A stretch of DNA of 64,000 nucleotides from an uncultured Planctomycetaceae bacterium (GTDB taxonomy: Bacteria; Planctomycetota; Phycisphaerae; SM23-33), in the NCBI GenBank assembly GCA_964401835.1, contig CAYNZP010000008.1, positions 37,899 to 101,898 of the forward strand. The letters run 5' to 3'. Below, in pieces: positions 27,251 through 48,390 of the stretch. The stretch's first letter is position 1. Every line of letters begins with the position of its first letter. The notes under the pieces were generated by a model. It was given only the letters and a program-made list of their open reading frames with translations. It was not told the DNA's origin and did no database searches. The translations under genes were made by a program, and so were the position numbers.

Positions 27251-27382
27251 AAGGCCGATGAGTCTAACCAGAGTAAAAGAAATTTGCAACAAACGCTGTA
27301 AGCAATATATTGTGTGCTTGCTCATTTGGCGGTTGTGATATTAAAATCCAACGCCGGGTTCTTTCTATATCGATAAAAAGGC

Positions 27383-28879
27383 ATGAAAGTGATTATGAAA
27401 ACGACGAGATTATTAATTCCATTATTGGTTTTTTCCGCATTTTTTACCGGGTGTGTCCAGCAGGTCCCCGAAACACCGAGCAATCTGGTCGAATACCACA
27501 ACCAGCAGCGGACAAATCCGGATGCGTATCCCGAGCGAACCATCCTGCTTTATAACCTTCAGCGGGTCCTGGATAGCGACATCGAGACATCCGACCGTGT
27601 TCACTCTATGGAACTTGTAACCTACCTTGGTGGTGAGGACGAATCTGTCCATGCACAGCTGGCAGAGATATTGGCAAAGCCCAACACGCCGCCGGAGCTC
27701 AACCAGGCTGTGTTGGAATTTCTGCTCAAGAAAGATTACCCACATGTAGCAGCCTACGTCGTAAAGGCTCTTCCTCAGGCCAAGCCGGGCAGCGAAATGC
27801 GACAAGCCATGCTGGATTGGCTGGCTAAGCATCCTCGCGGAGATGTACTTGCCGAGGTCGTCAAGCTTTGGGCACAGGAGCCCTCCAGCACCAGCCCGAA
27901 CGAGCCAAGATTCAGACACCTTGTTGAACGCATGAGCGGAAGGCAGTGGGATCAGGCCCTTATTGACGGCATTAACACGCCGATTTTCTTCGCACGCGGG
28001 TCTGCCCTGAAGGTTCTTACTGAGAGAATCCCTGTTAAGATACTCAAGGCCAGGATATCCAAGGCAACACCTCGTACGGATGCGATGAAGGTCTTGCACG
28101 CCTTTATTTACAGGTTCGACTATATTCCGGTCAACGGCCAGCAGTTTGCCACGGCAGCATCACTTTCAGCCAAAAAGTGGAGCGTAATGGATGATGCAGC
28201 CAAGCTTTCCAGCAAATGGCAGGAGAGTTACGGCTACCGTTTCGACATTCGTGACTTCCACCTTTTGAGCGAGCTTTCACGAGACCCGCTCCGCAAGATG
28301 CTCAGACGAACGCAGATAGCCCTTGAATTGGGACAGGAATTCGGCGCGCGTCGGCATGTCAAGCATATCCCTTCTAGGCTCGGCGCCGAAGATGACTATA
28401 ACGACCGCTTCTGGCCACAGGTTGAAAGCCTCACCATGGCTGACCTTTGGAACCTGTACCTGCTTAACGAGATGCTCTCCAGCCCGAGAGTGCAACTGGC
28501 TTTGAAGGTTATGGGCGACCTTGACCGACGAGACAGAAGAAACGCCTGGGGCGGCCTTGTTTCATACGAAAACGGCAAGGCCGAAGCCAAGATTTATCCG
28601 TCTGACCAGACAAATGTCCAAAGCAGCGACACTCGTTATATAATCTCTAAACAGGCCGCTAAGGAAGGGCGGGACTCATTGTGCCGCTTCTCGGCCCATT
28701 TCAGCCAGCAAGCCAATTCACAGCAGGCCGGGCCGGGAATTGAAGAACTGCAGGACGCCAAAGAAAACAATTTCTACGGATTGGTACTGACCAGCATAGG
28801 TCCGGACGAATTCTGTGCGCATTACTTCAATCCGGATGGAACTGTCGTTTCAATGGGAACATACCCGTTCGGAAAATAA
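27383..28879 (+). CDS. Lipoprotein, function unknown
   Basis: Signal peptide with lipobox FFTGC. 498 aa, no recognisable catalytic motif. Confidence 0.6.
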   Translation: MKVIMKTTRLLIPLLVFSAFFTGCVQQVPETPSNLVEYHNQQRTNPDAYPERTILLYNLQRVLDSDIETSDRVHSMELVTYLGGEDESVHAQLAEILAKPNTPPELNQAVLEFLLKKDYPHVAAYVVKALPQAKPGSEMRQAMLDWLAKHPRGDVLAEVVKLWAQEPSSTSPNEPRFRHLVERMSGRQWDQALIDGINTPIFFARGSALKVLTERIPVKILKARISKATPRTDAMKVLHAFIYRFDYIPVNGQQFATAASLSAKKWSVMDDAAKLSSKWQESYGYRFDIRDFHLLSELSRDPLRKMLRRTQIALELGQEFGARRHVKHIPSRLGAEDDYNDRFWPQVESLTMADLWNLYLLNEMLSSPRVQLALKVMGDLDRRDRRNAWGGLVSYENGKAEAKIYPSDQTNVQSSDTRYIISKQAAKEGRDSLCRFSAHFSQQANSQQAGPGIEELQDAKENNFYGLVLTSIGPDEFCAHYFNPDGTVVSMGTYPFGK

Positions 28880-28891
28880 GAAAACCTGAGC

Positions 28892-29491
28892 CTACTCGAC
28901 CTTTTTCAGGACGCGTTCTATCGCCTCGTACTCGGTCTGCATCTCGTTGAGTTTCGTGCGATGTTCCTGAAGCACTTCTTCGGGCGTGTTTGTCAGGTAA
29001 TCATTATCGCCAAGCTGATCGGAGAGCAGGGAAATCTGGCCGGCCAAAAGTTCCATTCTCTTTTTTAGCAGTTCGATGCGATCGTTCTGGCTTGGCGTAG
29101 CCATGACCGTATCGAACACATGTTCAGCGACATAGAAGGGCACGTCCAAGCCGACACCAAGTGCAATGGCATCGCTGGGGCGTGAATCGATTTCAATCAT
29201 CTCGCCGTCTAGGCTGATAAAGAGTTTTGCGATAAAGGTATGTTCGTGAAGATCGCTTATGACTACTTTTTGCACCTCACCACCCATCTCCTTTATAACG
29301 CTTCCAAGGAGATCGTGGGTCATCGGCCGGGGAGTTTGCATTCCCTTCAGGCGACGATCGATTGCCATAGCTTCGCTTATACCAATGAGAATGGGAAAAT
29401 TCCGCTCACCGTCTTTCTCACGGAGGAAGATTACCTGCTGATCCCCAAGTTCCGTTATGAGGATGCGCGACAGTTCAACGGGCACGTCCAT
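28892..29491 (-). CDS. Bifunctional nuclease (DUF151/BFN) domain protein with coiled-coil tail
   Basis: N-terminal 130 aa match the BFN domain pattern (ILIGISEAMAI, DSRPSDAIALGV). The C-terminal 60 aa are a heptad-repeat region. Confidence 0.6.
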   Translation of the reverse strand: MDVPVELSRILITELGDQQVIFLREKDGERNFPILIGISEAMAIDRRLKGMQTPRPMTHDLLGSVIKEMGGEVQKVVISDLHEHTFIAKLFISLDGEMIEIDSRPSDAIALGVGLDVPFYVAEHVFDTVMATPSQNDRIELLKKRMELLAGQISLLSDQLGDNDYLTNTPEEVLQEHRTKLNEMQTEYEAIERVLKKVE

Positions 29492-29586
29492 TTTGCGATC
29501 CTCTAAAAATTAAATAGTCTTAATGTATTCTATTAAGCCCACTTGGCTGCTGCAAATAAATGGGCCTAACCGGGCCGAATCCCCAG

Positions 29587-32500
29587 CTATTCCAGGCTTT
29601 CCAAAGACTCCAAAACCGCTGCCAGCTCTGCCTTTAGGGCTTCGCAGCGATGGCGTTCTTTTTCGATAACTTCCTGGGGCGCTTTTTCGAGGAAATTTTC
29701 GTTGCCGAGTTTTGCCTCAATAGACTTAATGCCGCGCTGGAGGGTTTCCTTATGCTTTGTCAGGCGGACAACTTCAGCATCACGGTCGATGATATCCAAT
29801 ACATAAAGTTTTATACCACCAGCCGTAACGGCGGAAGCATTGGCAGGTGGGCTCACTGGTTCGCTGGAGACCTTTAACTCGCCCAACGCAGCCTGCGATG
29901 TAAGAAGGTCGACGTTGTCGCCTACCATCCCAGCCATCTGAGGAGTTACTTCGATAATCGCATCGACCTTCTGGCTGGGGGCTACCTCGTGTTGTTTGCG
30001 GACATTTCTGACCTTGCGGATAAGCTCAGCCATCAGCGTGAAGTTTTCTTCTGCAGCTTTGTTGATAAAGGCAGAATCAGCCTGCGGCCATTGTGCCCTT
30101 ATCAGCATGGGCTCAGCAGCAATGTCGCCGGGGCCTCGCGATGGTGCGATGGAATTCAGCGAGGCCCAAATCTGTTCCGTGATAAACGGACAGACCGGAT
30201 GCAGAAGTCGCAGGAAAACATCAAGGCAATGGGCAACAATCGCCTTGGGCGCGTTTTCACCGGAGTTAATCCGTGTCTTGATTATTTCCAGATACCAGTC
30301 GCAAAGTTCGTCCCACATGAAGTGGTAAAGCGTATCGCAAACCTCATTAAACCTGTAACTCGACATGGCGCTGGTAACATCACGAACAGTTGCCTGCAGG
30401 CGGCTGAGTATCCAGGCGTCGGCAAGGTTTTTGGTCGGATGTATTTCTCCCCAGGTGGGAATGCCCTTCAGGTTCATCATCGCAAAACGCGAAGCGTTCC
30501 AGAGTTTGTTGCAGAAGTTCCTGCCGACGTCGAACTTCGGGCTGGTGTTTACACGTCTGCCGTCGGGAAGGTCCATTTCCTCCACCGGCATGCGGACATC
30601 CTGCGTCTGGGTCGTCATCGCTGCAAGCGTGTACCGCATCGCGTCGGCACCGTGCGAGTCGATAATATCCAGCGGGTCGATGCCGTTGCCGAGGCTCTTG
30701 GACATCTTGCGTCCTTCGCCATCCTGGATCATCGCGTGAATAAATACGTCGGTAAAGGGGATATCGCCCGCACAATACTGGCCCATCATGACCATGCGTG
30801 ACACCCACAGCGTGATTATCTCACGGGCTGTGCAGAGCAAATCGCCCGGATAATACTTATTAACTTCTGGCGTATCTTCCGGCCAACCCAGCGTACTGAA
30901 AGGCCAAAGTGCACTGCTGAACCATGTATCGAGAACGTCTGGGTCTTGTTTAAACTCGGAAATTAAATCTTTTACTTTATGGGCAGCGGTACCTGCTTCT
31001 TTACTTGGGAATTCGGGAGATGCTCGATAAGGTGCTTCTTCCCCAGGAGTATGGTTGCGAGCTTGATAAAGCTCAAAAAGCTGCTCGATTTTGTGCAGGG
31101 CGCTATCAGCACTACTTCCATTTGTGCATATATAAAACTCCCATCTTTCACCCACTACACTAACATGTTTAGCCAAGAAAGAGTTATGGGGCAAATTCAT
31201 CAATTTTGCATAGTCATCTAATCTCTTATTGAGAGTGTTGATATATGCATCAGAATCCTCAGCAGCGCAAATAAAATCGTCGTTGGCAGAAGGAACCATA
31301 GGTTCTAAGTACCATACCGGTATCTGGTGACCCCACCAGAGTTGTCGGCTTATTGGCCAATCGCGGAGGTTTTCGAGCCATGTTTGATAGGTCTTGGCAT
31401 ATCTTTCGGGCACGAATTTAACCCGGCCGTCAAGCAGGGGCTTTAGCGCCAGGCCGGCAAGTGAATTTACAGGCACATCCGTATCTTCAATAAGGCCCTC
31501 GTCGGGCATTGTCGGAATCGGCTTTTTGACGGCTACATACCACTGGTCGGACAGATATGGCTCGATCGGCACGTGGCTGCGGTAGCTGTGGCCGACCGGA
31601 TGAGTGTACTGGCGGACATCTTCGAGGAGGTTTTCCTTGCGGAACCATTCGACGATTGCTTCGCGTGCTTCGAAACGGTCCATGCCCAAAAGAATTTCGG
31701 CATCGCTTTCGGCAGCGTCTTCCCAGCCGTACTTATCGGAAATGCTGCCATCGGGGGCCATGACGTTGATAATCGGCAGGTCATGGCGTTGACCTATCTG
31801 CCAGTCGTCCGGGTCGTGGGCCGGCGTTACCTTTAAAAAGCCCGTCGAGAAACGCGCCTTCTCATCTTCGCTTTCCGGGTCGGGCAATACAACGTGCTCG
31901 TCGGCAATGATCGGAATCTTTCGGCCGACTATCGGCAGGCGAACCATCTGGCCAACAAGCAACTCCGCACGCGGGTCGGAAGGGTTCATCGCAACGGCTG
32001 TGTCGCCCAGCATCGTCTCGGGGCGTGTAGTAGCGACGGTGACATGTTCTATTTTGCAGCCGTCAATTTCCACCGGCTTGACAAGTGGATATTGCAAATA
32101 CCAGAAGTTTCCGGCAACGTCCTCGTGTTCGACCTCGTCATCGGCCAGTACTGTTTGCGTTGCGGGGTCCCAGTTTACCAGTCGCTTTCCGCGGTAAATC
32201 AGGCCGTCTTTGAATAACTTGAAGAAAGTCTCCCGCACAGCCCGTGCGCAGGTATCGTCCATGGTAAAACGAGTGCGGTCCCAGTCGCACGAGCAACCCA
32301 TAAGTTTTAGCTGGTTGAGAATGCGCTGTTCGTACTCATCCTTCCATGCCTGAACGCGGCCTACAAATTCTTCTCGCTCGAAATCGGTGCGGCGTTTGCC
32401 TTCCTCGGCGAGTATCCGTTTTTCGACTACGGTCTGCGTAGCGATGCCGGCATGGTCCGTGCCGGGCATCCAAAGCGTATTAAACTGACCCATACGCTTG

Positions 32501-32703
32501 TAGCGAATAAGAACGTCCTGCAGTGTATTATTGAGCGCATGGCCAAGGTGCAGCGGAGCTGTCACGTTGGGCGGGGGGATAACGATGCAGTACTTCCGCC
32601 TTTGGTCGGTTGGGTCTGCCGCGAACGAGCCAGCCTCAATCCAACTTTTGTAAACCTCTTGCTCTACGCTTTTGGAATTATAAACTTTGTCTAATTCAGC
32701 CAT
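29587..32703 (-). CDS. valS: Valyl-tRNA synthetase
   Basis: 1038 aa. PPPNVTAPLHLGHA (HIGH), KMSKSLGN, editing domain, and C-terminal coiled coil. Confidence 0.9.
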   Translation of the reverse strand: MAELDKVYNSKSVEQEVYKSWIEAGSFAADPTDQRRKYCIVIPPPNVTAPLHLGHALNNTLQDVLIRYKRMGQFNTLWMPGTDHAGIATQTVVEKRILAEEGKRRTDFEREEFVGRVQAWKDEYEQRILNQLKLMGCSCDWDRTRFTMDDTCARAVRETFFKLFKDGLIYRGKRLVNWDPATQTVLADDEVEHEDVAGNFWYLQYPLVKPVEIDGCKIEHVTVATTRPETMLGDTAVAMNPSDPRAELLVGQMVRLPIVGRKIPIIADEHVVLPDPESEDEKARFSTGFLKVTPAHDPDDWQIGQRHDLPIINVMAPDGSISDKYGWEDAAESDAEILLGMDRFEAREAIVEWFRKENLLEDVRQYTHPVGHSYRSHVPIEPYLSDQWYVAVKKPIPTMPDEGLIEDTDVPVNSLAGLALKPLLDGRVKFVPERYAKTYQTWLENLRDWPISRQLWWGHQIPVWYLEPMVPSANDDFICAAEDSDAYINTLNKRLDDYAKLMNLPHNSFLAKHVSVVGERWEFYICTNGSSADSALHKIEQLFELYQARNHTPGEEAPYRASPEFPSKEAGTAAHKVKDLISEFKQDPDVLDTWFSSALWPFSTLGWPEDTPEVNKYYPGDLLCTAREIITLWVSRMVMMGQYCAGDIPFTDVFIHAMIQDGEGRKMSKSLGNGIDPLDIIDSHGADAMRYTLAAMTTQTQDVRMPVEEMDLPDGRRVNTSPKFDVGRNFCNKLWNASRFAMMNLKGIPTWGEIHPTKNLADAWILSRLQATVRDVTSAMSSYRFNEVCDTLYHFMWDELCDWYLEIIKTRINSGENAPKAIVAHCLDVFLRLLHPVCPFITEQIWASLNSIAPSRGPGDIAAEPMLIRAQWPQADSAFINKAAEENFTLMAELIRKVRNVRKQHEVAPSQKVDAIIEVTPQMAGMVGDNVDLLTSQAALGELKVSSEPVSPPANASAVTAGGIKLYVLDIIDRDAEVVRLTKHKETLQRGIKSIEAKLGNENFLEKAPQEVIEKERHRCEALKAELAAVLESLESLE

Positions 32704-32741
32704 GCTTTTTTAATACCGTTAACTCGTTAATTCAAAGAAGA

Positions 32742-34322
32742 TTACTTCAGCAACTTGTATTCTATTGCATCTATCAAAGCAAGCCACGACGCATCGATTA
32801 TATTTTCGCTGACGCCGACGCTGCCGAAGTAGGCGGTGCTGCTGGTCTCGTGCCAATCGATAACGACTCGCACCTTGGCTGCGGTCTCCGCGGCGGTGTT
32901 TACCACGCGGACCTTATAGTCGGCCAGATGCAAATCATCTACCTGCGGATAGGCCTTGCGTAAGGCTGCGCAAAGAGCGTTATGCAGCGAATCGACCGGG
33001 CCGTCGCCTTCAGCCACCCTGTGACGAACAACACCGTCAACCAAAAGCTTAACTATTCCTTCGGTGTTGGCTGTCTCGCCGTCTCGCTTGAGTATGACGC
33101 AACGATAATGGTCAAGGTCCCAAAGCTTGCGATACCACTTTCCGCCAAGCGTTTTTCGCACGAGAACGTCAAGGCTGGCCTCGGCGGCCTCGAACTGATA
33201 GCCCTGGTTTTCCATTTCCATTATCTTTTTGAGAATCTTGCGCTGGGCGACCTTGTCTTTGGCAATCCTGTATCTCTTGTCAACGGACGCAGCGATATTG
33301 CTGACGCCTGAAACCTCGCTGACCAATATCCGCCTTGTATTACCAACGGCGGAAGGGTCCATGTGCTCGTAAGTGGCCGCGTTTTTATTTACGGCATGTA
33401 CGTGCATTCCACCTTTATGAGCGAAGGCCGAAGCGCCTACAAAAGGCTGATTTTCGCGCAGGTTAAGATTAGCCACCTCGTAGATGAACCGGCTGGCCTC
33501 GGTAAGTTTATCCAACTTGTTTCGACCCAGGCAGCTGTAACCGTATTTTACGACAAGGTTCGGTACGATAGCGGTTAAGTCAGCATTGCCGCAACGCTCA
33601 CCGATACCGTTTATCGTTCCCTGCACCTGCACTACACCGCCAGTAACAGCAGCGAGCGAATTCGCCGTTGCCAGATCGCAGTCGTTATGACAATGAATGC
33701 CAAGTCTGGCCTTGGGTAGTTTCGCTTGAACCGCGCCAAGGCATTCGCATACCTGGTTCGGCAGCGAACCGCCGTTCGTATCACAAAGCACAAGCGTGCT
33801 GGCACCAGCGCTCATGGCTGCGGCGAGCGTCTCGATTGCGTAAGCCGGATTAGCACGCCAGCCGTCAAAGAAATGCTCTGCATCGAAGATAGCCTCCCGG
33901 CGGGCTTTTTTCATATAGGCTACCGAGTCGGATATCATCCTTAGGTTTTCTTTGAGGCTTACATTTAGAACATCTCGAACGTGCAGGTCCCAACTCTTGC
34001 CGACGATGGTTACAACCTTAGCCCTGCAGGCAAGCAGAGCCTTCATGCCGGCATCGTCTTTTGCCTTCCTGCCTTTTCGACGGGTCATGCCGAAAGCAAC
34101 GATCTTCGACTTTTTGAGCTGTTTTTTACGCAGGGCCTTGAAGAACGCTTCGTCTTTTGGATTACTCAGAGGATAACCGCCTTCGATGTAATCGACACCA
34201 AGAGAGTCGAGCGTATCGACAATCAAAAGCTTATCCTCGAGCGAAAGGCTCACGCCCTGGGCCTGTGTGCCGTCTCGAAGCGTGGTGTCATAAACTTCTA
34301 TTCTTTTTCTTTTATGTGCCAT
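32742..34322 (-). CDS. cimA: (R)-citramalate synthase / 2-isopropylmalate synthase family (CimA-like)
   Basis: VYDTTLRDGTQ and HCHND(C)DLA motifs plus a C-terminal LeuA-dimer regulatory domain. About 525 aa, typical of CimA. ATG at 34322 with AAGGTG RBS preferred over the GTG at 34331. Confidence 0.75.
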   Translation of the reverse strand: MAHKRKRIEVYDTTLRDGTQAQGVSLSLEDKLLIVDTLDSLGVDYIEGGYPLSNPKDEAFFKALRKKQLKKSKIVAFGMTRRKGRKAKDDAGMKALLACRAKVVTIVGKSWDLHVRDVLNVSLKENLRMISDSVAYMKKARREAIFDAEHFFDGWRANPAYAIETLAAAMSAGASTLVLCDTNGGSLPNQVCECLGAVQAKLPKARLGIHCHNDCDLATANSLAAVTGGVVQVQGTINGIGERCGNADLTAIVPNLVVKYGYSCLGRNKLDKLTEASRFIYEVANLNLRENQPFVGASAFAHKGGMHVHAVNKNAATYEHMDPSAVGNTRRILVSEVSGVSNIAASVDKRYRIAKDKVAQRKILKKIMEMENQGYQFEAAEASLDVLVRKTLGGKWYRKLWDLDHYRCVILKRDGETANTEGIVKLLVDGVVRHRVAEGDGPVDSLHNALCAALRKAYPQVDDLHLADYKVRVVNTAAETAAKVRVVIDWHETSSTAYFGSVGVSENIIDASWLALIDAIEYKLLK

Positions 34323-34366
34323 AACCGTCACCTTTTAAATTTGTGGCTCTCGGTTCCTTTGATAAT

Positions 34367-34432
34367 AAAAAAACCCTGAAGCTGAATCCGCCTCAGGGCC
34401 TGTCTTTTCCTGTATTTCAAAGAGCCCTAAGG
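34367..34432 (-). terminator. Attenuator: terminator hairpin + U7 with alternative antiterminator pairing, in the cimA 5' leader
   Basis: Minus-strand RNA: CCCUGAGG-CGGAUUCAG-CUUCAGGG then UUUUUUU (34398..34367), 44 nt before the cimA ATG. CCUUAGGGC (34432..34424), which overlaps the leader-peptide stop codon, can pair 9/9 (one G-U) with GCCCUGAGG, the terminator 5' arm. Confidence 0.7.
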
Positions 34433-34543
34433 TACGCAGCCGATTACTATAATTACTCCAATAATGCTAATAATGCCGGCGCGAACGCTGGATACGCTTA
34501 TTTCGGCATCTTTATATACCAGATTGTCGCCAGCTTTTCGCAT
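34427..34543 (-). CDS. Ile/Val-rich leader peptide (38 aa) of the cimA-valS attenuator
   Basis: Hand translation: MRKAGDNLVYKDAEISVSSVRAGIISIIGVIIVIGCVP*. It has 8 Ile and 6 Val, with 9 of the 11 residues 24-34 being Ile or Val. Its stop codon is embedded in the antiterminator strand. Confidence 0.7.
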   Translation of the reverse strand: MRKAGDNLVYKDAEISVSSVRAGIISIIGVIIVIGCVP

Positions 34544-34590
34544 TGTTTTCTCTTATCGGCTAAACTCTTTAAGTATATCTTAGAATTTAG

Positions 34591-34618
34591 ATTATATATT
34601 ACCAACACATGGCGTCAA
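34591..34618 (-). promoter_or_regulatory. Sigma70-type promoter for the leader-cimA-valS transcript
   Basis: Minus strand TTGACG - 16 nt - TATAAT, about 50 nt upstream of the leader peptide ATG. Confidence 0.55.
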
Positions 34619-34668
34619 CGAAGATTGTATTTCCTCGGGACAGCCAAATGTTTGTGGGCTTTGTTATA

Positions 34669-34697
34669 TTGGATTCGTCGGAAAGATTTTCTATAAT
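34669..34697 (+). promoter_or_regulatory. Possible promoter for the ykgJ-hisS operon
   Basis: TTGGAT - 17 nt - TATAAT on the plus strand, 86 nt upstream of the ykgJ-like gene. GGAG RBS present. Confidence 0.3.
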
Positions 34698-34783
34698 CGC
34701 CTGGGGCTAATGTAAATGGGTTTTTGCTGCCGATAAGCTAACATTCTTGTCGTTTTGAACAATGAAAATTTTGGAGAGTTGTA

Positions 34784-35200
34784 ATGAGTTTGACGTGTAA
34801 ACAATGTGCTGCGAAATGCTGCAATTATTTTTGCTTTGAAATCGACGAACCGGGCGATTACGAAGAGTTCGAAGATATCAGATGGTATCTCTGCCACGAG
34901 GGCGTGACGGTACATATAGACGATGGCGATTGGTATATCTCCATCGCCAATAAGTGCAAAATGCTAGCTGACGATAACAGTTGCAGGTTTTACGAGAACC
35001 GCCCGCAGATTTGCAGGAATTATTCACAAAAAGGCTGCGATGACATAGGTGGCGATTACGGCTATGATGAGCACTTTGAAACCCCCGAACAACTCGAAGA
35101 GTATGCCAAAAAGGTTCTGGGCAAAAAGATATTCGATCGCGAGCGGGCCAAGTTTCGCGCCCGGGCAGAGCAAAAAGCCAGGAAAAACCAGGTCAAATGA
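34784..35200 (+). CDS. YkgJ-family cysteine-cluster (CxxCxxCC) protein
   Basis: CKQCAAKCC and later NSCRFY / PQICRNY motifs typical of UPF0153/YkgJ. The stop overlaps the hisS start. Confidence 0.65.
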   Translation: MSLTCKQCAAKCCNYFCFEIDEPGDYEEFEDIRWYLCHEGVTVHIDDGDWYISIANKCKMLADDNSCRFYENRPQICRNYSQKGCDDIGGDYGYDEHFETPEQLEEYAKKVLGKKIFDRERAKFRARAEQKARKNQVK

Positions 35201-36471
35201 AGATACAGTCAGTAAAAGGAACGCGTGATTTTTATCCCGACGCCATGCGTCTGCGTAATTGGATATGCGACAACTGGCGGAAGGTATCGCTGCGCAATGG
35301 CTTCGAGGAATACGACTCGCCCATTTTCGAGTATCTCGACCTTTTCACGATAAAAAGCGGCGATGAAATCGCCAGCCAGCTTTTCAACTTCACAGACAGG
35401 GGAGGGCGGTCCCTGGCCATTAGGCCGGAGATAACACCCTCGCTTGCCAGAATGGTCAACGCACAGATTAACTCGCTGCCTAGACCCATAAAGTGGTTTT
35501 CCATTCCCCGCCTTTGCCGGGCCGAGAATCCTCAAAAAGGGCGGCTGAGAGAGTTTTTCCAGTGGAATATCGACGTTATCGGCAGTGACGACGTCCTTGC
35601 AGACGCTGAATGCCTTTTAGTCGCAGTCGATTTTCTACGGGAAATCGGACTGGACAGTGATGATGTCAAAATCCAGATAGGCTCGAGGCCGCTTACTATG
35701 GCAGTTCTTAAGGCTATCGGAGTCAAAGATGGCAGCTACGAGAAGGTTCTTGCCGTCCTCGATAAGCGTCCAAAGATAGGTGAAGAAGAGTTCGCCAGGC
35801 TTTGCAAAACTGCAGGCATTGATGATGAGCAACGCGATGCTATCTGTAATTTTCAGGATGTGGAAAATATAGACGCCTTGAAATCTTTCGGGGATAAATA
35901 TTTTTCCGACTGCGAAAAGCAGCTGGAAGATATGGGGAATCTTTGGCAACGGCTGGATAAATTCGGTGTTGCAGACTATTGCGTTCTGGACATGCGGATT
36001 GTCCGCGGCCTGGCGTATTACACCGGCATTGTTTATGAAATTTTCGACGCCAAACAGTCTTTGCGTGCCGTCGGCGGGGGCGGCAGATATGACAATCTTT
36101 TGCAGGTCCTGGGAGGCCCAAAAGTTGGCGCAACAGGATTCGGCATGGGCGACGTCGTGCTGGGAATTCTGCTTGAAGAAAAAGGTAAAATCTCTTCCGA
36201 GATACTATCGGGCAGCTTGGACTATTTTGTAATTGACGGGGAAGATGGCCTGTTCTCAAAAGTAATGGAACTGGTCAGTCAGTTGCGAGCCAGGCAGATT
36301 TCCGCAGAATTCAGCTACAAACGGCAAAACATTGGCAAACAGCTCAAAGAAGCCAACCGTCGCGGTGCAAAGTCGGCCTTGATAGTTAGAGACAATGAGG
36401 TAGCAATCAAAAACCTTTCTACGGGTGAGCAGGCGGAGAAATCCCTGGACGATTTTTTAAAATCTCTTTGA
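35197..36471 (+). CDS. hisS: Histidyl-tRNA synthetase
   Basis: KGTRDFYPD class II motif 1, RPE, GGGRYD motif 3, anticodon-binding domain. Confidence 0.9.
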   Translation: MKIQSVKGTRDFYPDAMRLRNWICDNWRKVSLRNGFEEYDSPIFEYLDLFTIKSGDEIASQLFNFTDRGGRSLAIRPEITPSLARMVNAQINSLPRPIKWFSIPRLCRAENPQKGRLREFFQWNIDVIGSDDVLADAECLLVAVDFLREIGLDSDDVKIQIGSRPLTMAVLKAIGVKDGSYEKVLAVLDKRPKIGEEEFARLCKTAGIDDEQRDAICNFQDVENIDALKSFGDKYFSDCEKQLEDMGNLWQRLDKFGVADYCVLDMRIVRGLAYYTGIVYEIFDAKQSLRAVGGGGRYDNLLQVLGGPKVGATGFGMGDVVLGILLEEKGKISSEILSGSLDYFVIDGEDGLFSKVMELVSQLRARQISAEFSYKRQNIGKQLKEANRRGAKSALIVRDNEVAIKNLSTGEQAEKSLDDFLKSL

Positions 36472-36489: not shown

Positions 36490-37011
36490 ATGGCAAATCG
36501 AAACATACATTACGAAGCCGCCTTCGAAGATTACCTGCGAGGCAAAGGCTGGCCGTATGTCGCGGTAGATGAAAATAAAAAGGCGATCTTCGGAAATGCG
36601 GGCGTCAAGAGCTTCGATTTCCTTGTATACAGTGAGACAGGACCTAACTTGCTTGTGGACGTAAAGGGTAGAAAATTCCCGGACCCCACAGCCGGTTCCA
36701 AGAGATCCAAGAGCAAGAGGTGGGAAAATTGGCTAACCAGGGACGATGTTGAGGGTCTGGAAAAGTGGCAGAAAGTTTTCGGCAAGGATTTTTTGGCTAT
36801 GCTGGTTTTTGCCTATTGGCTGCAGGGACCTCCGCGAAAAAGTCCTTTCGATGATGTGCATATATTTCGTGAAAAGAATTACGCATTTGTGGGTATTACT
36901 CTGGTGCAATATTTGACTCAGGCAAAGCCAAGAAGCGCCAAATGGCAGACCCTTTCAGTGCCCTCAGCTTTATTTTCGGATAAAGCCGAGGACTTGGCGG
37001 CTTTTCTCTGA
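36490..37011 (+). CDS. HYExAFE-family protein with a PD-(D/E)xK nuclease-like core
   Basis: NIHYEAAFEDYLR N-terminus, then FDFLVY ... LLVDVKGRK matching the hhhD ... (D/E)xK restriction-endonuclease-like motif. Confidence 0.6.
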   Translation: MANRNIHYEAAFEDYLRGKGWPYVAVDENKKAIFGNAGVKSFDFLVYSETGPNLLVDVKGRKFPDPTAGSKRSKSKRWENWLTRDDVEGLEKWQKVFGKDFLAMLVFAYWLQGPPRKSPFDDVHIFREKNYAFVGITLVQYLTQAKPRSAKWQTLSVPSALFSDKAEDLAAFL

Positions 37012-37088
37012 GCAACAGCCTTGGGGAAGCAAGTTTGCAATGCGAACTCATAAAGCTATAATTCAGTAAACACTTGGGAGTTTTTGAT

Positions 37089-37292
37089 ATGAAAAAATAC
37101 CGGTTTCTTCTTTCTGTTTTGTTGCTCATTACAACAACCGCGAGTGATTTCGCTTTGGCATTATCTGATGGATACGAATCTCCAGAGCTTAAGGATGAGG
37201 CGCCATGGACAGCAATACTCTACCTCGTAGTTGCTCTGGCTGGTATTTGCATAGTAGCATTCAAAAACTCCAGAAGGACACACCTGGATTGA
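37089..37292 (+). CDS. Small membrane protein (68 aa)
   Basis: GGGAG RBS 8 nt upstream of the ATG, N-terminal hydrophobic segment, and a C-terminal TM helix (AILYLVVALAGICIVAF). Confidence 0.5.
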   Translation: MKKYRFLLSVLLLITTTASDFALALSDGYESPELKDEAPWTAILYLVVALAGICIVAFKNSRRTHLD

Positions 37293-37307
37293 TTGGGAGA
37301 TAGCACC

Positions 37308-37610
37308 ATGAAAAAGCCATTAATAGTTTTGCTTGTGATTGTCAACGTGGCGCTTTTGGCTGGGTTGTTTTGGGAAGTCGCCACACCAAGCGCTAAAGCT
37401 CAGACAATTGGCGGCGGGTCGGACTATATCATGATTACCGGCAAGACCGGAAGTAACTGGGATGCAGTGTATGTCATCGATCTGGGCACCAGGCGGATGG
37501 CTGCATGGAGGTTTGAAAAGGGTCGAAGGAGAATGATACAGTTCAGAGGCCGCGAACTGACTACCGATTTTGGCCGAAGAACTCGCCAGCCAGGAAAAAG
37601 TACCTATTAA
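37308..37610 (+). CDS. Small N-terminally anchored protein, paralog A (101 aa)
   Basis: GGAG RBS, one TM helix, then an ~60-aa domain GGSDYIMITGKTGSNWDAVYVIDLGTRRMAAWRF that is homologous to the next gene's product. Confidence 0.55.
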   Translation: MKKPLIVLLVIVNVALLAGLFWEVATPSAKAQTIGGGSDYIMITGKTGSNWDAVYVIDLGTRRMAAWRFEKGRRRMIQFRGRELTTDFGRRTRQPGKSTY

Positions 37611-37638
37611 GAGTCAACTGACATCCGGAGAAATCGCC

Positions 37639-37920
37639 ATGAAGGATATGCAAAATATAACGATTGTTCTTCTGCTGGTAACTGCGGCAATTCTTTCTGC
37701 CGTGCTTATTACCTCTTACGCCACCAAGCCCGCTTTTGCTGAGGCATCCGTTAAGGGTGGGGATTATGTAATGGTCGCAGGAGCCTATGAGTCATCAACG
37801 GACTTCATTTATGTAATGGATGTTGCCTCACAACGAATGAATGTTTATTTTGCCAACGCGCAACGCAAAGAAGTTGAGCTTATTCAATCCGTTGATATCG
37901 CACAGGCTTTTGGCGAGTAA
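37639..37920 (+). CDS. Small N-terminally anchored protein, paralog B (93 aa)
   Basis: GGAG RBS 8 nt upstream, one TM helix, then the domain KGGDYVMVAGAYESSTDFIYVMDVASQRMNVYF. It shares the GGxDYxMxxG ... YVxD ... RM ... F pattern with paralog A. Confidence 0.55.
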   Translation: MKDMQNITIVLLLVTAAILSAVLITSYATKPAFAEASVKGGDYVMVAGAYESSTDFIYVMDVASQRMNVYFANAQRKEVELIQSVDIAQAFGE

Positions 37921-37930
37921 ATTTTACGCA

Positions 37931-38995
37931 GTGGACGATTATACAGAATCATTTGCAAACCGCGTACTAAACGGCGAAAAGCTCAGCAGGGCGGAGCTAT
38001 TAAGCCTTGCAGAGTCATCCCAGGAAAACCCCTTTGATTTGCTCTATTGGGCAAACCGTATCCGCACAGAGAATTTCGGCCGGGCTGTAAAGCTCTGCTC
38101 GATAGTCGCAGGCAAAACAGGTGCATGCAGCGAAGATTGCAAATGGTGTGCTCAATCCGCCAAATATGAAACACCTGGCTCACCATGTTGTTCAGGAGCG
38201 TCTAATTCACCTGCAAGAACAGAAGTCGAAGCTATCAAACAGGCTGCCAAGGAAGCTTCGCAAGCAGGCGCAGCGAGCATCGGTATAGTAAACTCAGGTA
38301 GAAAGCCATCTGAAAAAGATATTAATGACGCTGTCGATGCAGCACAACTCGTAACGTCCGATAATATGTGCGGGGATTTACAGATGTGTGCATCTCTGGG
38401 GGAACTGGATGACCAAACTGCCCAGAAATTGGTAGCCGCCGGTTTTACCCGATACAACCATAACCTGGAAACCTCAAAGGCATTTTATCCCAAGATGGTT
38501 ACAACGCACAAATATGAAGACCGGATCAATTGCCTGAAAACGGCAAAAAAGGCCGGCCTGAGTATTTGCTGCGGGGGAATTTTTGGTCTGGGCGAAACAT
38601 GGCAGGATCGCATAGATTTGGCTATCACTTTGCGGGATGAAATCGGCCCGGCAGTTGTACCCTTAAACTTTTTACATCCAATTGAAGGGACGCCGCTAGA
38701 AACAAACAAACCCCTCGAACCAATGGAAATCCTCCGAATCATCGCTGTTTTCCGATTTGCCTTGCCATACGTTGACATCAAAATAGCCGGTGGCCGCGAG
38801 AAAAATCTGGGCGATCTCCAAAGCTGGATCTTTTATGCAGGCGGTACAAGCTTTCTAATAGGGAATTACCTTACGACAATAGGTAGGCCGCCAGAAGATG
38901 ATTTAAGGATGATTTCAGACCTTGGCTTAGAGATTGTAAGGAAATTGCCACAAAAACCCTCCAAAACACCTAAAAATCAACAAAATCTACCCTAA
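37931..38995 (+). CDS. bioB: Biotin synthase
   Basis: GACSEDCKWCAQS radical SAM motif, YNHNLETS, CCGGIFGLGET. Start is uncertain; a GTG at 37931 lies just after the upstream stop. Atypical insertion TPGSPCCSGAS after the cluster motif. Confidence 0.8.
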   Translation: MDDYTESFANRVLNGEKLSRAELLSLAESSQENPFDLLYWANRIRTENFGRAVKLCSIVAGKTGACSEDCKWCAQSAKYETPGSPCCSGASNSPARTEVEAIKQAAKEASQAGAASIGIVNSGRKPSEKDINDAVDAAQLVTSDNMCGDLQMCASLGELDDQTAQKLVAAGFTRYNHNLETSKAFYPKMVTTHKYEDRINCLKTAKKAGLSICCGGIFGLGETWQDRIDLAITLRDEIGPAVVPLNFLHPIEGTPLETNKPLEPMEILRIIAVFRFALPYVDIKIAGGREKNLGDLQSWIFYAGGTSFLIGNYLTTIGRPPEDDLRMISDLGLEIVRKLPQKPSKTPKNQQNLP

Positions 38996-39283: not shown

Positions 39284-39312
39284 TTGACAGATTTGGGGGT
39301 TTGATTTATAAT
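39284..39312 (+). promoter_or_regulatory. Consensus sigma70 promoter driving the PEP-CTERM protein gene
   Basis: Exact TTGACA - 17 nt - TATAAT. It leaves a 5' UTR of about 215 nt before the ATG at 39534, which has a GGAGGAG RBS. Confidence 0.6.
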
Positions 39313-39533
39313 TTTGTGAATGGAGGAGCTGCTTTTAGGACCTATGCTCAGGGACCTGATTGTTTGTACGAATTGCTCAAGTACAAATAAAACCTCAGCT
39401 CAAAACTCCTGATTATTTAGTATTTTTTTGCTCAGACTTACATGCAGGATGTTTGTAACGCCCTTCGCTCAAAATTAGGGATTTAAGAAGCTGGTGCTTC
39501 AGAAGCGCCAGACAGGATTTGGAGGAGTTAAAT

Positions 39534-41063
39534 ATGGTTTCCTCACGGCTCGGTGAGGTGTTGGTTGTCTCGCTCGCAACTTTTGCTCTGCTGGCTGGAA
39601 ACGCCCTTTCAGCTACTGTGCCCCCAACACCCAGCACGGATTTCAGGGATTTACGCGATGGTTATGTCAGAACCTGGTATATCTACAATGACAGCTCCGG
39701 CGGCGGACCTGCTGATGGTGTGCTTAAACCCGGAGATACCCGGATTGAAACATTCCAGAACTGGTGGACCCCGGTCTCTGCCCACACTCAACATAACTAC
39801 GTGCGGTCTGTTCCTGGTCAAAATGGACCGCAACAGGCGATACCAGGCTATGACATGTATGGTGACTGCCCGTCGGCTCCGATGAATTTCGCTACTTTTA
39901 CGCTTCCTGCGGGCGATCCGAACAAAAACAATGCTGACTATAACTACTGGCTGCCGGAACGTGAAAATTCCATCCGCTTCTATATGACATACAGCCAACT
40001 GGATAACAACGATTCCGCGACCTACTATGAACCCGGCAATCCAGGCTACGAGGAGTTGGAGCGAGCTGGCAATGGCACGGTAGACGAAGACTTACGTCTT
40101 CTTCTCAAGCAGCGTAATATGGAACGTAATGGCTGGGCTCTCGGCTGGGTTGATAACGGCATAAACAAGGCTGCTCATGAAGCGAATCCTGGATTAATTG
40201 CCGGTAACATTGAAATGGCTATTTACGTTCATGAAGGTGCCCACGATATAAATTTAGCCGGATGGGGCGACTCCAGGTCCAACCCTCAGGTCGCAATGTC
40301 CAATGATATCGATTACAGCGCAGGCTATACCAACCTGGTTGGAACTCAGTGGCATCCTCCGCAGTATGATGAGGTAACGCAATCTTATAACGCCGGCACC
40401 CCTGTAAACCAGGCATATATGGCTTCAATTGACGATGGCAGTGCCAACTTTAACACTATCGTCAATTCCATGGAAATCAACGAACACGATCCAGACGATA
40501 TGCCCGCCCTTTCATGGCTGAGAGATTTGCCGGGGAATATTCAGAATAATGCTGCACTTAACGATCCGGACGGAAACCCCTATCAGTATGAAGACGGCTT
40601 TACTGATCTTTCGACGTACACGATCGGCAGCAGTGACGGCGGGGTTATTTCCGGTCTTGGCGGTTATGACGAGTACGACCCTGAGAACCCGGAAACGACA
40701 TGGCATAATCAGCAGGTAATCCGAATTGATATCTCCGAGAAAACCCTGCTAGATTATATCGAGAGCAGCGGCGGTGAAATCGACCATATTATCTTCTATG
40801 ACTTCATAAATGATGGAAACGGCCAGATTAATCCCCGTGAAATAGTATTCGGTGTGAATACCTCAAGAAGCGTCACTGACGGGCAGATATTTTACGATCC
40901 AGGTGATCCCTCGAATCCTGACCCGCTGGGTGAAAACCTGGTTTATTTCCAGGACAACCGAATTTACATTGCCCAGGTAGACATAGCGCCAGAGCCTGCG
41001 ACGATGGTACTGCTTGGCCTTGGCAGCATAACGGTTATCGCACGCAGGAGACGCAAGAGATAA
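39534..41063 (+). CDS. PEP-CTERM sorting-domain secreted protein (510 aa)
   Basis: Signal peptide and a Gly/Asn/Asp/Tyr-rich body. C-terminal APEPATMVLLGLGSITVIARRRRKR is a PEP-CTERM anchor. Confidence 0.75.
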   Translation: MVSSRLGEVLVVSLATFALLAGNALSATVPPTPSTDFRDLRDGYVRTWYIYNDSSGGGPADGVLKPGDTRIETFQNWWTPVSAHTQHNYVRSVPGQNGPQQAIPGYDMYGDCPSAPMNFATFTLPAGDPNKNNADYNYWLPERENSIRFYMTYSQLDNNDSATYYEPGNPGYEELERAGNGTVDEDLRLLLKQRNMERNGWALGWVDNGINKAAHEANPGLIAGNIEMAIYVHEGAHDINLAGWGDSRSNPQVAMSNDIDYSAGYTNLVGTQWHPPQYDEVTQSYNAGTPVNQAYMASIDDGSANFNTIVNSMEINEHDPDDMPALSWLRDLPGNIQNNAALNDPDGNPYQYEDGFTDLSTYTIGSSDGGVISGLGGYDEYDPENPETTWHNQQVIRIDISEKTLLDYIESSGGEIDHIIFYDFINDGNGQINPREIVFGVNTSRSVTDGQIFYDPGDPSNPDPLGENLVYFQDNRIYIAQVDIAPEPATMVLLGLGSITVIARRRRKR

Positions 41064-46469: not shown

Positions 46470-46656
46470 TTTCAATTTCAACCCTCTCGCACAGCCATTT
46501 CTTACGTTAAGGGCAGATTATCCCGCAGTTTATCCGTCCAACCGGGCATTAGCCCCCTAACGCTTATTGACATGCTCCCTGCAAAATGCTAACGTCCTGA
46601 GAATAATTTAGGGCACCAAAAAAGGATTGCCGACTTCTGAGCGTAAGGAGCATGTC

Positions 46657-48390
46657 ATGATAAAATGGGCGATTGTATTACTTTGTGCTTTTGCCTTGAC
46701 TACATCCGCTTTTTCCCAGACACCCGCACCCGTTACTGGACAGGAAAAGTACGTTGGTGAACTTACAGGAACAAATGTCCACGTCCGAAGCGGGCCTGGC
46801 CTTAACATGTATCCATGCGCCAAAATTTCCATGCCGACAAAAGTCACGGTCATGGGCAAAACAGACGCCGGCTGGCTGATAATTCTTCCGCCTGAAGGTT
46901 GTTTCAGCGTAATCCACAAAAAGTACGTCAAAGTTGACGAAACCGGCAAGACTGGCACAGTCACCAGCGACAATATATGGCTTCGCGCAGGCGGCAATTT
47001 GCGCAGCTCGGATTTCTGGAAGATTCAACAGCGTGTCAATAAAGCCCAAGAGGTAAAAATACTCGGTGAGATTAGCGACTTCTACAAGATCGAGTCACCC
47101 CAAGGTGTTTACTTCTATATCTGGCAGGACTTCGTAAAACCTGCCGCCGAAACCGCTGCTGCCGAAGAAGAAGTAGCCCTCGTCGAAGATGAAGTCGAAA
47201 CCACCCCTGCTATGCCAGAAGACAAGGCGGAACCTACAACGCAGCCGTTGGTTGCTGATGTCGAACAGGAAGAAGACCTGGAGCAGGCCGTTAATAATTA
47301 TAATAAGCTCGAAACTCTTCTAATCGACGAATACAAAAAGCCTCTAGCCCAAAGGGACCTTGAAGGCCTGCTTGAGAAATACCAAGCCCTGAAACCTGAC
47401 CCTGACGGTTATCTCAAGCCGCATGTCGAAGCAAGAACGCTTTTCCTCCAGCAGGCAATAGAGAAAAAAATGGAGCTGGAAGAAGTCGAAGTCCTTGCCC
47501 AGAAAACAACCAGTGCCCAGCAGGAATACGAGATCAAGCGGACGAAAATTGAGATCGAAAAACTGCCCGAGCGACAGATGCAGATTTACCCAGCCAAGGG
47601 CGTCTTAAAGGCCAGCGATATCTTTGTCGGAAACGCCGCAGCACCAAAGCGGTATATGATCCGTGACAGTAAAACGAACGAAATTATCGCCTATGTCCAG
47701 TGCACCACCGGGATGGTCAAACTGGAAAACTTCGCCGGCAAAAATGTCGGGATCATCGGTACGAGCAAATATGACAGAAAACTTGCTACAGATGTCATCG
47801 AAGCTGAACAGGTTGTCGTGTTGTCGCAAAAAGCAACTCTGCCTACACCGCCGCAGCCGGTTGTTATTCCAAGGCCCGTTACGCCAGAGATCAAAAAGGT
47901 TCCCAAGCCGGCAAAACCCAAGCCTATCCAAAAGGCAGCTCCCAAGGCCAAGCCGACACCGGCTCCAAAACCAGTCGTAAAACCAAAGCCAACGCCCAAG
48001 CCTACACCAAAACCCCAAGCAGTAGCGCCGGCAATAAAGAAGGCCCAGCCCAAACCTGCTGTCAAACCAGAGCCAAAGCCTGAAGTAACCAAACAAATTA
48101 AGCCTGCTCCCAAGAAGGTCGAACCGAAAAAGACCCCAGCAACTCAGCCGGCCAAGAAATCTGAGCCAGTCATAAAAAAAGAGCCAAAACCAGCCAAGGC
48201 ACCTGTTGTTAAGGAACAACCTAAGGCTGAACCTGCCAGGGTAAAAGAAGAATCTAAATCCCAGCCGGAACCGAAGCCGGCAGAAAAAGCAAAAGAGAAA
48301 ACCAAGCCTCTACCCCCCACCGGACTTCCTGTAGCTTCGCCGGAAAATCAGCCAGCCCCTGGGCCTGTAAACGAAAAAGAATACGAGTAA
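46657..48390 (+). CDS. Secreted SH3-like domain protein with long Pro/Lys/Ala-rich C-terminal region
   Basis: Signal peptide, bacterial SH3-like segments (GTNVHVRSGPG, DNIWLRAGG), and a ~180-aa C-terminal KP(x)P low-complexity tail. Confidence 0.6.
   Translation: MIKWAIVLLCAFALTTSAFSQTPAPVTGQEKYVGELTGTNVHVRSGPGLNMYPCAKISMPTKVTVMGKTDAGWLIILPPEGCFSVIHKKYVKVDETGKTGTVTSDNIWLRAGGNLRSSDFWKIQQRVNKAQEVKILGEISDFYKIESPQGVYFYIWQDFVKPAAETAAAEEEVALVEDEVETTPAMPEDKAEPTTQPLVADVEQEEDLEQAVNNYNKLETLLIDEYKKPLAQRDLEGLLEKYQALKPDPDGYLKPHVEARTLFLQQAIEKKMELEEVEVLAQKTTSAQQEYEIKRTKIEIEKLPERQMQIYPAKGVLKASDIFVGNAAAPKRYMIRDSKTNEIIAYVQCTTGMVKLENFAGKNVGIIGTSKYDRKLATDVIEAEQVVVLSQKATLPTPPQPVVIPRPVTPEIKKVPKPAKPKPIQKAAPKAKPTPAPKPVVKPKPTPKPTPKPQAVAPAIKKAQPKPAVKPEPKPEVTKQIKPAPKKVEPKKTPATQPAKKSEPVIKKEPKPAKAPVVKEQPKAEPARVKEESKSQPEPKPAEKAKEKTKPLPPTGLPVASPENQPAPGPVNEKEYE
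47840..48380 (+). repeat. Low-complexity Pro/Lys-coding repeat region
   Basis: Iterated AAACC/AAGCC codon patterns encoding PKPxPKP. They generate spurious ORFs on both strands. Confidence 0.5.

Follow-up and report, generated by a model that had tools for sequence, protein, structure and literature searches.

Two kinds of described protein lie closest to the products of a small gene cassette found between hisS and bioB in a planctomycete genome. The first are junction resolvases of the PD-(D/E)xK fold, namely Hjc (PF01870; structures 1gef, 1hh1, 2wcw, and 2eo0) and RecU (PrfA), the Firmicute resolvase that is encoded beside ponA. RecU genes sit in a conserved genomic neighborhood together with one for a penicillin-binding protein, and the PD-(D/E)xK fold class also takes in tRNA-splicing endonucleases (PMC3424549). 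The second are propellers, both the seven-bladed Lactonase/YVTN type (PF10282; YncE-like, PF21783) and those in which sub-propeller fragments close a ring (the engineered WRAP/PkwA, Pizza, and tachylectin fragments and the natural Ph1500), which are mostly engineered homo-oligomers of at least two blades (PMC6805158, PMC9218822). Natural oligomeric propellers are rare (PMC9218822, PMC6805158); single WD40 blades were unfolded in the laboratory, and fragments of at least two blades formed oligomeric propellers (Afanasieva et al., PMC6805158). The window analyzed here is a stretch of 64,000 nucleotides (nt) from an uncultured Planctomycetaceae bacterium (class Phycisphaerae; GenBank assembly GCA_964401835.1, contig CAYNZP010000008.1, positions 37,899 to 101,898). 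Its cassette encodes a HYExAFE protein (HYE) and three small proteins (S1, S2, and S3).

We propose that two adjacent units stand between hisS and bioB, an Hjc-like nuclease (HYE) and an envelope trio (S1-S2-S3) in which S2 and S3 would form a ring; on this overall reading our judgment is evenly balanced. What is new is a predicted Hjc-like nuclease family of its own and putative propeller blades that occur as free-standing, paired proteins.

Organization and conservation of the cassette

The genes and signals of the locus are as follows (aa, amino acids; TM, transmembrane).

34784-35200 (+): gene for a CxxCxxCC (PF03692) zinc/iron-chelating-domain protein (Pfam E = 1.8e-6)
35197-36471 (+): hisS, histidine--tRNA ligase (TIGR00442, 339 bits)
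36490-37011 (+): HYE, HYExAFE protein of 173 aa, predicted Hjc/RecU-like PD-(D/E)xK endonuclease (NF038001 and structural model)
37035-37062 (+): promoter-like TTGCAA-16 nt-TATAAT in the HYE-S1 spacer (consensus 10/12)
37089-37292 (+): S1, 67 aa, predicted signal peptide, one TM helix, and cytoplasmic C-terminal tail
37308-37610 (+): S2, 100 aa, N-terminal hydrophobic helix and one predicted four-stranded blade-like domain
37639-37920 (+): S3, 93 aa, N-terminal hydrophobic helix and one predicted four-stranded blade-like domain
37931-38995 (+): bioB, biotin synthase (TIGR00433, 348 bits; start from the public gene call)

All four cassette genes were found on the plus strand between hisS and bioB, as an earlier, sequence-only reading of this DNA had described. 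Gaps along hisS-HYE-S1-S2-S3-bioB measure 18, 77, 15, 28, and 10 nt; the first four fit the spacers of 15 to 80 bp given there, and the last is an addition to that count. The strong ribosome-binding sites that it reported for the last three genes are present, with GGGAG or GGAG 8 nt before the ATG in each of S1, S2, and S3. Among its protein lengths, 173 and 93 aa are correct, and 68 and 101 aa should read 67 (S1) and 100 (S2). Public gene calls on the source contig agree (173, 67-72, 100, 93, and 354 aa), and the 354-aa call makes GTG 37931, 10 nt past S3, the most likely start of bioB. Upstream, the CxxCxxCC gene and the start of hisS overlap by 4 nt.

HYE relatives turned up in 375 species when each GTDB species was represented by one genome, and 80 of the matching loci were analyzed with tblastn and hmmsearch. 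Sequence reached far enough downstream in 62 loci, and in 54 of these the S2/S3 pair lies within 1.5 kb of HYE on that side. Immediately upstream of HYE stands hisS (57/71 loci); the two genes are separated by a median of 44 nt and by at most 30 nt in 25/62 loci, and they overlap by 4 nt in 2. The CxxCxxCC gene precedes hisS in 48/80 related loci and is thus a conserved member of the gene string; bioB directly follows S3 in 20/44, making it a frequent but not constant neighbor. In seven loci without hisS upstream (L053, L062, L063, L066, L076, L079, and L083), the pair is nevertheless kept with HYE. The converse test gave the same association: 48 metagenome loci were retrieved with an S3 alignment, 25 of them extended 1.7 kb or more upstream, and in all 25 HYE precedes S3 on the same strand.

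The gene order extends to distant relatives. Three distant S3 relatives are preceded by hisS, a gene of 172 to 181 aa at the HYE position, and one or no small called gene, and belong to pairs of genes of 91 to 107 aa. In a deep-branching metagenome lineage, whose hisS and HYE products share about 43% and about 50% identity, respectively, with those of the window, the order is unchanged: hisS and HYE come first, followed by a small protein that is S1-like in those loci that were inspected, a pair of S genes, and, as a rule, bioB. Across species loci HYE is 55 to 72% identical at one conserved syntenic locus, and in 48/64 loci it has a higher identity to its window counterpart than hisS has to its own. 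The protein collection holds 1135 clusters of HYE homologs; the best 120 of these are 65 to 73% identical, and the named ones are labeled Phycisphaerae or Planctomycetota.

We conclude that the four open reading frames (ORFs) are core genes of Phycisphaerae-type Planctomycetota, vertically inherited in the ancient order hisS-HYE-S1-S2-S3. Conservation in more than 100 loci rules out chance ORFs. The sequence-only reading had named two outcomes that would weaken it, a lack of conservation of the small ORFs in related genomes and a chance juxtaposition with HYE; order and orientation are in fact kept in dozens of species, and the counts for S genes after HYE and for HYE before S3 speak against chance.

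HYE, a predicted Hjc-like nuclease

HYE matches NCBIfam model NF038001 with 208.9 bits (curated cutoff, 60 bits; E = 4.2e-62), residues 4-171 aligning to positions 2-165 of 166. The earlier statement that no family assignment is evident is therefore not quite accurate for the first gene. None of S1, S2, and S3 has a family above the Pfam or NCBIfam threshold. HYE itself has no Pfam family at E ≤ 1, and the name HYExAFE is absent from the literature searched. The motif of the name corresponds to H7-Y8-E9-A10-A11-F12-E13. In an alignment of 120 HYE homologs, H7, Y8, E13, D43, D57, and K59 are invariant, and E9, A10, A11, and F12 are at least 90% conserved.

The AlphaFold2 model of HYE has a predicted local distance difference test score (pLDDT) of 86 and a predicted template modeling score (pTM) of 0.84. 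It contains the alpha-beta-beta-beta-alpha-beta core of the PD-(D/E)xK fold, as judged from this predicted structure, with E in helix 1, D at strand 2, and (D/E)xK in strand 3. Motif residues E9, E13, D43, D57, and K59 map to helix 4-19 and strands 44-46 and 53-63. We propose E9 (and/or E13), D43, D57, and K59 as candidate catalytic residues. The model, its structural matches, and the invariance of D43, D57, and K59 all support the earlier claim of a PD-(D/E)xK fold with an intact active site.

Among experimentally determined structures, those most similar to the HYE model in Foldseek searches of the PDB are Hjc and Hje (E down to 8e-6, target TM-score of 0.6 to 0.75). They include Hjc of A. 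fulgidus (2wcw; E = 7.8e-6, target TM-score of 0.73 to 0.75), 2eo0 of S. tokodaii, Hjc (4tkd) and Hje (1ob8) of S. solfataricus, and 1gef of P. furiosus (Pfu). All 15 matches at E ≤ 1e-3 are Hjc or Hje resolvases; RecU follows (1zp7 and 1rzn; E about 7e-3), then HincII and EcoRV. Matches to viral models, where named, are again mostly resolvases of the Hjc or RecU type. In a global hhalign alignment, which was forced and is not significant, HYE residues E9, G20, D43, D57, and K59 fall on Pfu Hjc residues E9, G20, D33, E46, and K48. From Hjc mutagenesis, we take E9, D33, E46, and K48 to be the catalytic tetrad of Pfu Hjc.

HYE thus shares with Hjc the order of secondary-structure elements, the best structural match, and tetrad columns in register. 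HYE is, however, about 40 to 50 residues longer than Hjc; it has a stretch of basic residues inserted behind the (D/E)xK strand, a WENW motif, an extended C terminus, and its own invariant H7-Y8. Furthermore, HYE is bacterial, restricted to Planctomycetota, unusually conserved, and a predicted nuclease. With RecU it has in common the PD-(D/E)xK resolvase fold (1zp7, 1rzn), although the structural match is weaker than that to Hjc, and RecU offers a precedent for a nuclease gene in a conserved context with an envelope protein (PMC3424549). In place of a penicillin-binding protein, however, the neighbors of HYE are three proteins of fewer than 105 aa. Membership of HYE in the Hjc or RecU families at the sequence level was sought by Pfam, PDB profile search, hhalign, and BLASTP, and none was found. 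Because there is no significant sequence match to Hjc, the Hjc link rests on predicted structure.

On paper, then, HYE is Hjc-like: the model points to a family of its own with an Hjc-like fold and a complete predicted active site. HYE would be a cytoplasmic PD-(D/E)xK endonuclease with the Hjc fold and tetrad, probably expressed with hisS. The analogy to Hjc and RecU suggests a metal-dependent, structure-specific nuclease that would act, probably as a dimer, on branched or structured nucleic acid. A tblastn search for RuvC and RuvB in about 1 Mb of sequence gave no match, in a sample that is small and biased and hence uninformative on RuvC loss.

S2 and S3 as putative single propeller blades

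S2 and S3 are paralogs with periplasm-facing mini-domains, as had been proposed (BLASTP E = 4e-14, 31% identity over 91 aa). S2-type and S3-type proteins form separate orthologous groups, with mean identities of 0.33 to 0.37 within and 0.21 between groups, and the duplication is therefore old. Searched with a profile, a set of 1.84 billion representative proteins (50% clustering) yielded 1689 members of this S family at E ≤ 1e-3, nearly all of those listed being 90 to 125 aa long. In the AlphaFold2 model of S3 (pLDDT 85.5), helix 2-27 and a linker precede a four-stranded antiparallel meander (strands 43-51, 54-61, 66-73, and 78-86) with a pLDDT of 88 to 95 per 10-residue block across the sheet.

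The likeness to propellers comes from profile comparisons. The S family profile (A3) matches the 1144-aa protein P0275 eleven times (E = 9.4e-21, library of 1.84e9 proteins), and P0275 belongs to the Pfam Lactonase seven-bladed propeller family (E = 2.6e-87). A hidden Markov model (HMM) of the S beta-domain finds 12 blades in P0275 above the HMMER inclusion threshold and one weaker blade, for 96.7 bits in total; in the 12 blades it aligns 'alyViDlatrkLnayrfdrtrkrlvpv' with 'FLYVANADSHDISAYTIDVKTGRLTPM'. When the blade profile of P0275 was compared with the S profile by hhalign, the probability was 92.8% (P = 3.9e-7). Matches below threshold point the same way: S2 resembles a YncE-like propeller model (YNCE; E = 0.19, 11.5 bits against a cutoff of 27.1), PDB profile matches of the S family to Pizza3 and an NHL repeat serve as a lead only, and DPP4 blades superpose on the S3 model with a root mean square deviation of 1.5 Å over 44 columns at a nonsignificant E of 0.3. 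Weak matches of S1 and S3 to DUF3747, FixQ, AmaP, and 'lipo-invert tail' were rejected as noise from hydrophobic segments.

Compared with Lactonase/YVTN propellers, the S2/S3 profile aligns to strands B to D of the 12 P0275 blades, the 'lYViD' motif corresponds to 'YV(A/T)N', and the four-stranded antiparallel meander is common to both. In contrast to those seven-bladed chains, an S2 or S3 chain has one blade after a membrane helix and comes as two differentiated paralogs. Both the profiles and the S3 model suggest that S2 and S3 each consist of one propeller blade of the lactonase/YVTN type behind a hydrophobic helix. This assignment goes beyond the sequence-only reading, as does the predicted Hjc/RecU-type fold of HYE.

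S1 and a possible S2/S3 ring

For S2 and S3, the earlier description of the small proteins as membrane anchored needs qualification. The N-terminal hydrophobic helix, which ends in A-K-A|Q in S2 and A-F-A|E in S3, may be a signal anchor or a cleavable signal peptide: a near-invariant alanine in the A-x-A-like motif behind it could belong to a signal-peptidase site. Polar residues are also conserved within these helices (N in S2, QNIT in S3), and the family member P0260 carries a 48-residue N-terminal extension.

Across the family, hydrophobic residues account for at least 86% at four consecutive positions of strand A and at five of strand B, which gives the sheet two hydrophobic faces; the C and D strands are amphipathic. 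A soluble monomer is therefore excluded, and S2 and S3 must oligomerize. Such two-faced hydrophobicity is typical of a blade with a neighbor packed against either side. Fusions occur in nature: P0274 joins an S2-type protein to an S3-type domain that has no helix of its own, P0303 has two blades with a 5-residue linker from strand D to strand A, and P0184 has four blades. Two or three tandem S2-S3 pairs accompany a single S1 at three loci (L037:2173-4523, L008:5646-7382, and L031:6016-8502). On the grounds of these natural fusions and of duplication of the pair as a unit, S2 and S3 are taken to work together in one compartment.

As a separate observation, the four S-type blades of P0184 (383 aa) are joined by proline-rich linkers, and its gene directly follows one for an extracytoplasmic function (ECF) sigma factor, the usual position of an anti-sigma factor (L091:722-5150). 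An 878-aa ARPP-1/HEAT protein is encoded next, and the context differs from that of the HYE cassette.

Searches of 85 sources (84 loci and the window) recovered S1 orthologs from 68. They have a signal peptide, a short periplasmic DG(Y/F)..PE segment (DGY..PE in the window), one TM helix, and a conserved tail, predicted to be cytoplasmic, with the consensus FKnskRtHld at the very C terminus (AFKNSRRTHLD in the window). S1 stays single copy even where S2/S3 pairs have multiplied, and no Pfam or NCBIfam family matches it above threshold. We considered and rejected S1 as a PEP-CTERM-like sorting signal (PF07589): there was no match at E ≤ 1, and its tail is FKNxKRTHLD rather than an arginine cluster. 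A neighboring 514-aa protein, unlike S1, does have a PEP-CTERM match.

From the hydrophobic faces, the constant pairing, the co-duplication, and the occasional fusion, we infer an alternating S2/S3 ring. The two proteins would alternate around a closed, propeller-like ring, 6 or 8 blades in all, that lies against the cytoplasmic membrane on its periplasmic side, with S1 as a third, bitopic subunit whose conserved tail would face the cytoplasm. That natural single blades, conserved throughout a bacterial class, alternate in this way to build a hetero-oligomeric, membrane-tethered propeller, encoded next to an Hjc-like nuclease with which it may cooperate, is a tentative proposal that we hold to be possible but somewhat short of an even call. 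The concept is that of the fragment-built propellers, in which sub-propeller pieces close a ring. S2 and S3 differ from those in being natural, widespread, and single-bladed, and they would differ further in being hetero-oligomeric and tethered to the membrane.

Alternative explanations

Several observations weigh against the proposal of an Hjc-like nuclease beside an S2/S3 ring. For HYE, profile-profile likeness to Hjc is not significant (P of 0.013 to 0.033 and probability of 1.8 to 3.3% in hhalign comparisons with four Hjc sequences), and there is no Pfam match to Hjc (PF01870) or RecU (PF03838). The four aligned Hjc sequences are only 36 to 43% identical to one another and HYE is far more conserved, which may mean that HYE is under additional constraint or acts on another substrate. 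For S2 and S3, a Foldseek search of the PDB with the S3 model returned nothing significant (best matches, DPP4/DPP6 blades at E = 0.2); both proteins fall below every Pfam and NCBIfam propeller threshold, and S3 matches no propeller family at all. The laboratory WD40 blades, moreover, were unfolded when single (PMC6805158). As to the locus, HYE is followed by no S gene over the next 1.5 kb in 8 of 62 loci, and 7 of those 8 have no S-like ORF within 5 kb, even at relaxed thresholds. Finally, the adjacency of hisS and bioB is conserved too, and synteny alone is no proof of a functional link.

In the eighth of these loci, L073, the S pair lies 2.4 kb downstream of HYE, beyond an insertion. The locus is on a complete Phycisphaerales chromosome (CP070827.1), where a 122-nt direct repeat (L073:5382-5503 and L073:7286-7407, 93% identical, 1904 bp apart) copies the 3' end of HYE and brackets an insertion that encodes tyrosine-recombinase-like ORFs, with S1-S2-S3 after it. 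The insertion looks like an integrative element that uses the HYE 3' end as its attachment site.

The S2/S3 domains may not form a propeller at all. They could instead make up a small periplasmic beta-sheet heterodimer or sandwich, possibly released by signal peptidase, or donate blades or strands to another protein. We consider this unlikely, though with real points in its favor: the A-x-A-like motif with its nearly invariant alanine, the S3-type domain of P0274 that lacks a helix, the want of a significant Foldseek propeller match for the S3 model, and the rarity of natural oligomeric propellers together with the failure of single blades to fold in the laboratory (PMC9218822, PMC6805158). 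However, hydrophobic A and B faces throughout the family suit a blade between neighbors better than a two-layer dimer, the 5-residue strand-D-to-strand-A linker of P0303 is as in real propellers, and the S profile is homologous to lactonase blades. The conserved polar residues of the helices and the extension of P0260 favor retained anchors over release.

A second possibility is that the cassette is one integrated module, in which HYE works with an S1-S2-S3 membrane complex, for example by being recruited or regulated through the S1 tail. The retention of HYE with S1-S3 in the seven loci without hisS, the 25/25 metagenome loci with HYE upstream of S3, and the strong conservation of FKNxKRTHLD in what is only a 10-residue cytoplasmic stub all speak for such a module, and the context of RecU with a penicillin-binding protein provides a precedent (PMC3424549). 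On the other side, the HYE-S1 spacer is the longest of the cassette (77 nt here, often 100 to 300 nt elsewhere) and carries the promoter-like site, 7 of 62 loci have HYE with no S genes within 5 kb, and hisS and bioB are conserved neighbors with no obvious shared function in a lineage that broadly keeps its gene order. On balance we doubt that the four proteins form one module. The site at 37035-37062 could mark a separate start for S1-S3, but promoter-like sites in the region are as numerous as expected from shuffled sequence, and this one is weak evidence. The earlier claim of cotranscription from hisS through bioB is likewise unsupported, and the HYE-S1 site is itself at chance frequency.

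Considerably less probable is that HYE is directed at RNA rather than at DNA junctions, as a nuclease tied to HisRS in the maturation or quality control of tRNA-His. Such a role would fit the tight packing of hisS and HYE, the conservation of HYE on a par with an aminoacyl-tRNA synthetase, the invariant H7-Y8 beside E9, which has no Hjc counterpart, and the inclusion of tRNA-splicing endonucleases in the fold class (PMC3424549). Nevertheless, structural comparison points first to DNA junction resolvases and type II restriction enzymes, with no tRNA endonuclease among the matches listed; the acidic/lysine tetrad is of the type for metal-dependent DNA cleavage; and HYE stays with S1-S3 where hisS lies elsewhere.

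A defense or stress island, for which the only support is a nuclease-fold protein beside small membrane proteins of unknown function, is excluded for practical purposes because the neighborhood is one of core housekeeping genes (tyrS, valS, a leuA-like gene, lpxB, scpB, and ftsW/rodA), the guanine-plus-cytosine content is similar to that of the flanks, and no component has a PADLOC family (PADLOC-DB models against the cassette proteins gave only noise, E = 0.038 and 0.023, 11 to 13 bits); one syntenic locus, vertically inherited across hundreds of species with strong sequence conservation, also argues against it. Of the functions suggested in the sequence-only reading, an envelope location is thus likely, a stress or defense module is not, and a chaperone-like pair finds no support.

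Surrounding genes in the window

The cassette follows a concentration of translation genes, three aminoacyl-tRNA synthetase genes (tyrS, valS, and hisS) lying within about 10 kb (26030-36471). The order valS, leuA-like gene, CxxCxxCC gene, hisS recurs in related metagenome contigs (L001 to L003). Immediately downstream of valS (29587-32703, minus strand), positions 28892-29491 (minus strand) encode a 199-aa protein that combines a bifunctional-nuclease (BFN) domain with a segment resembling the C-terminal tRNA-binding arm of ValRS. On the other side of the cassette, a perfect sigma-70 consensus (TTGACA-17 nt-TATAAT, 12/12) is found at 39284-39312 (plus strand), about 200 nt upstream of the gene for the 514-aa PEP-CTERM protein (39519-41063). 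Two long ORFs on the plus strand, 27383-28879 (498 aa) and 46627-48390 (587 aa), match none of the Pfam families at E ≤ 1e-4.

Biological meaning

HYExAFE is a named family without a literature, conserved at the level of an aminoacyl-tRNA synthetase and present in at least 375 species genomes. Its Hjc/RecU-type predicted fold and intact predicted tetrad give it a concrete biochemical test, and they raise the question of what role a second or alternative junction-type nuclease may have in a phylum with unusual cell biology. If HYE and S1-S3 do form an integrated module, recombination or chromosome resolution would be coupled to the envelope or to division, as might be compared with recU of Firmicutes, which is cotranscribed with ponA (PBP1).

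For propellers, the prevailing model is one of origin from single blades, although propellers of oligomeric build make up a 'minute fraction' in nature and blades taken singly were unfolded in laboratory work. Given a widespread pair of one-blade proteins, this model could be tested on natural material. The S2/S3 ring, if true, would be a living example of the preamplification state, the ancestor that Lupas and colleagues proposed for all propellers.

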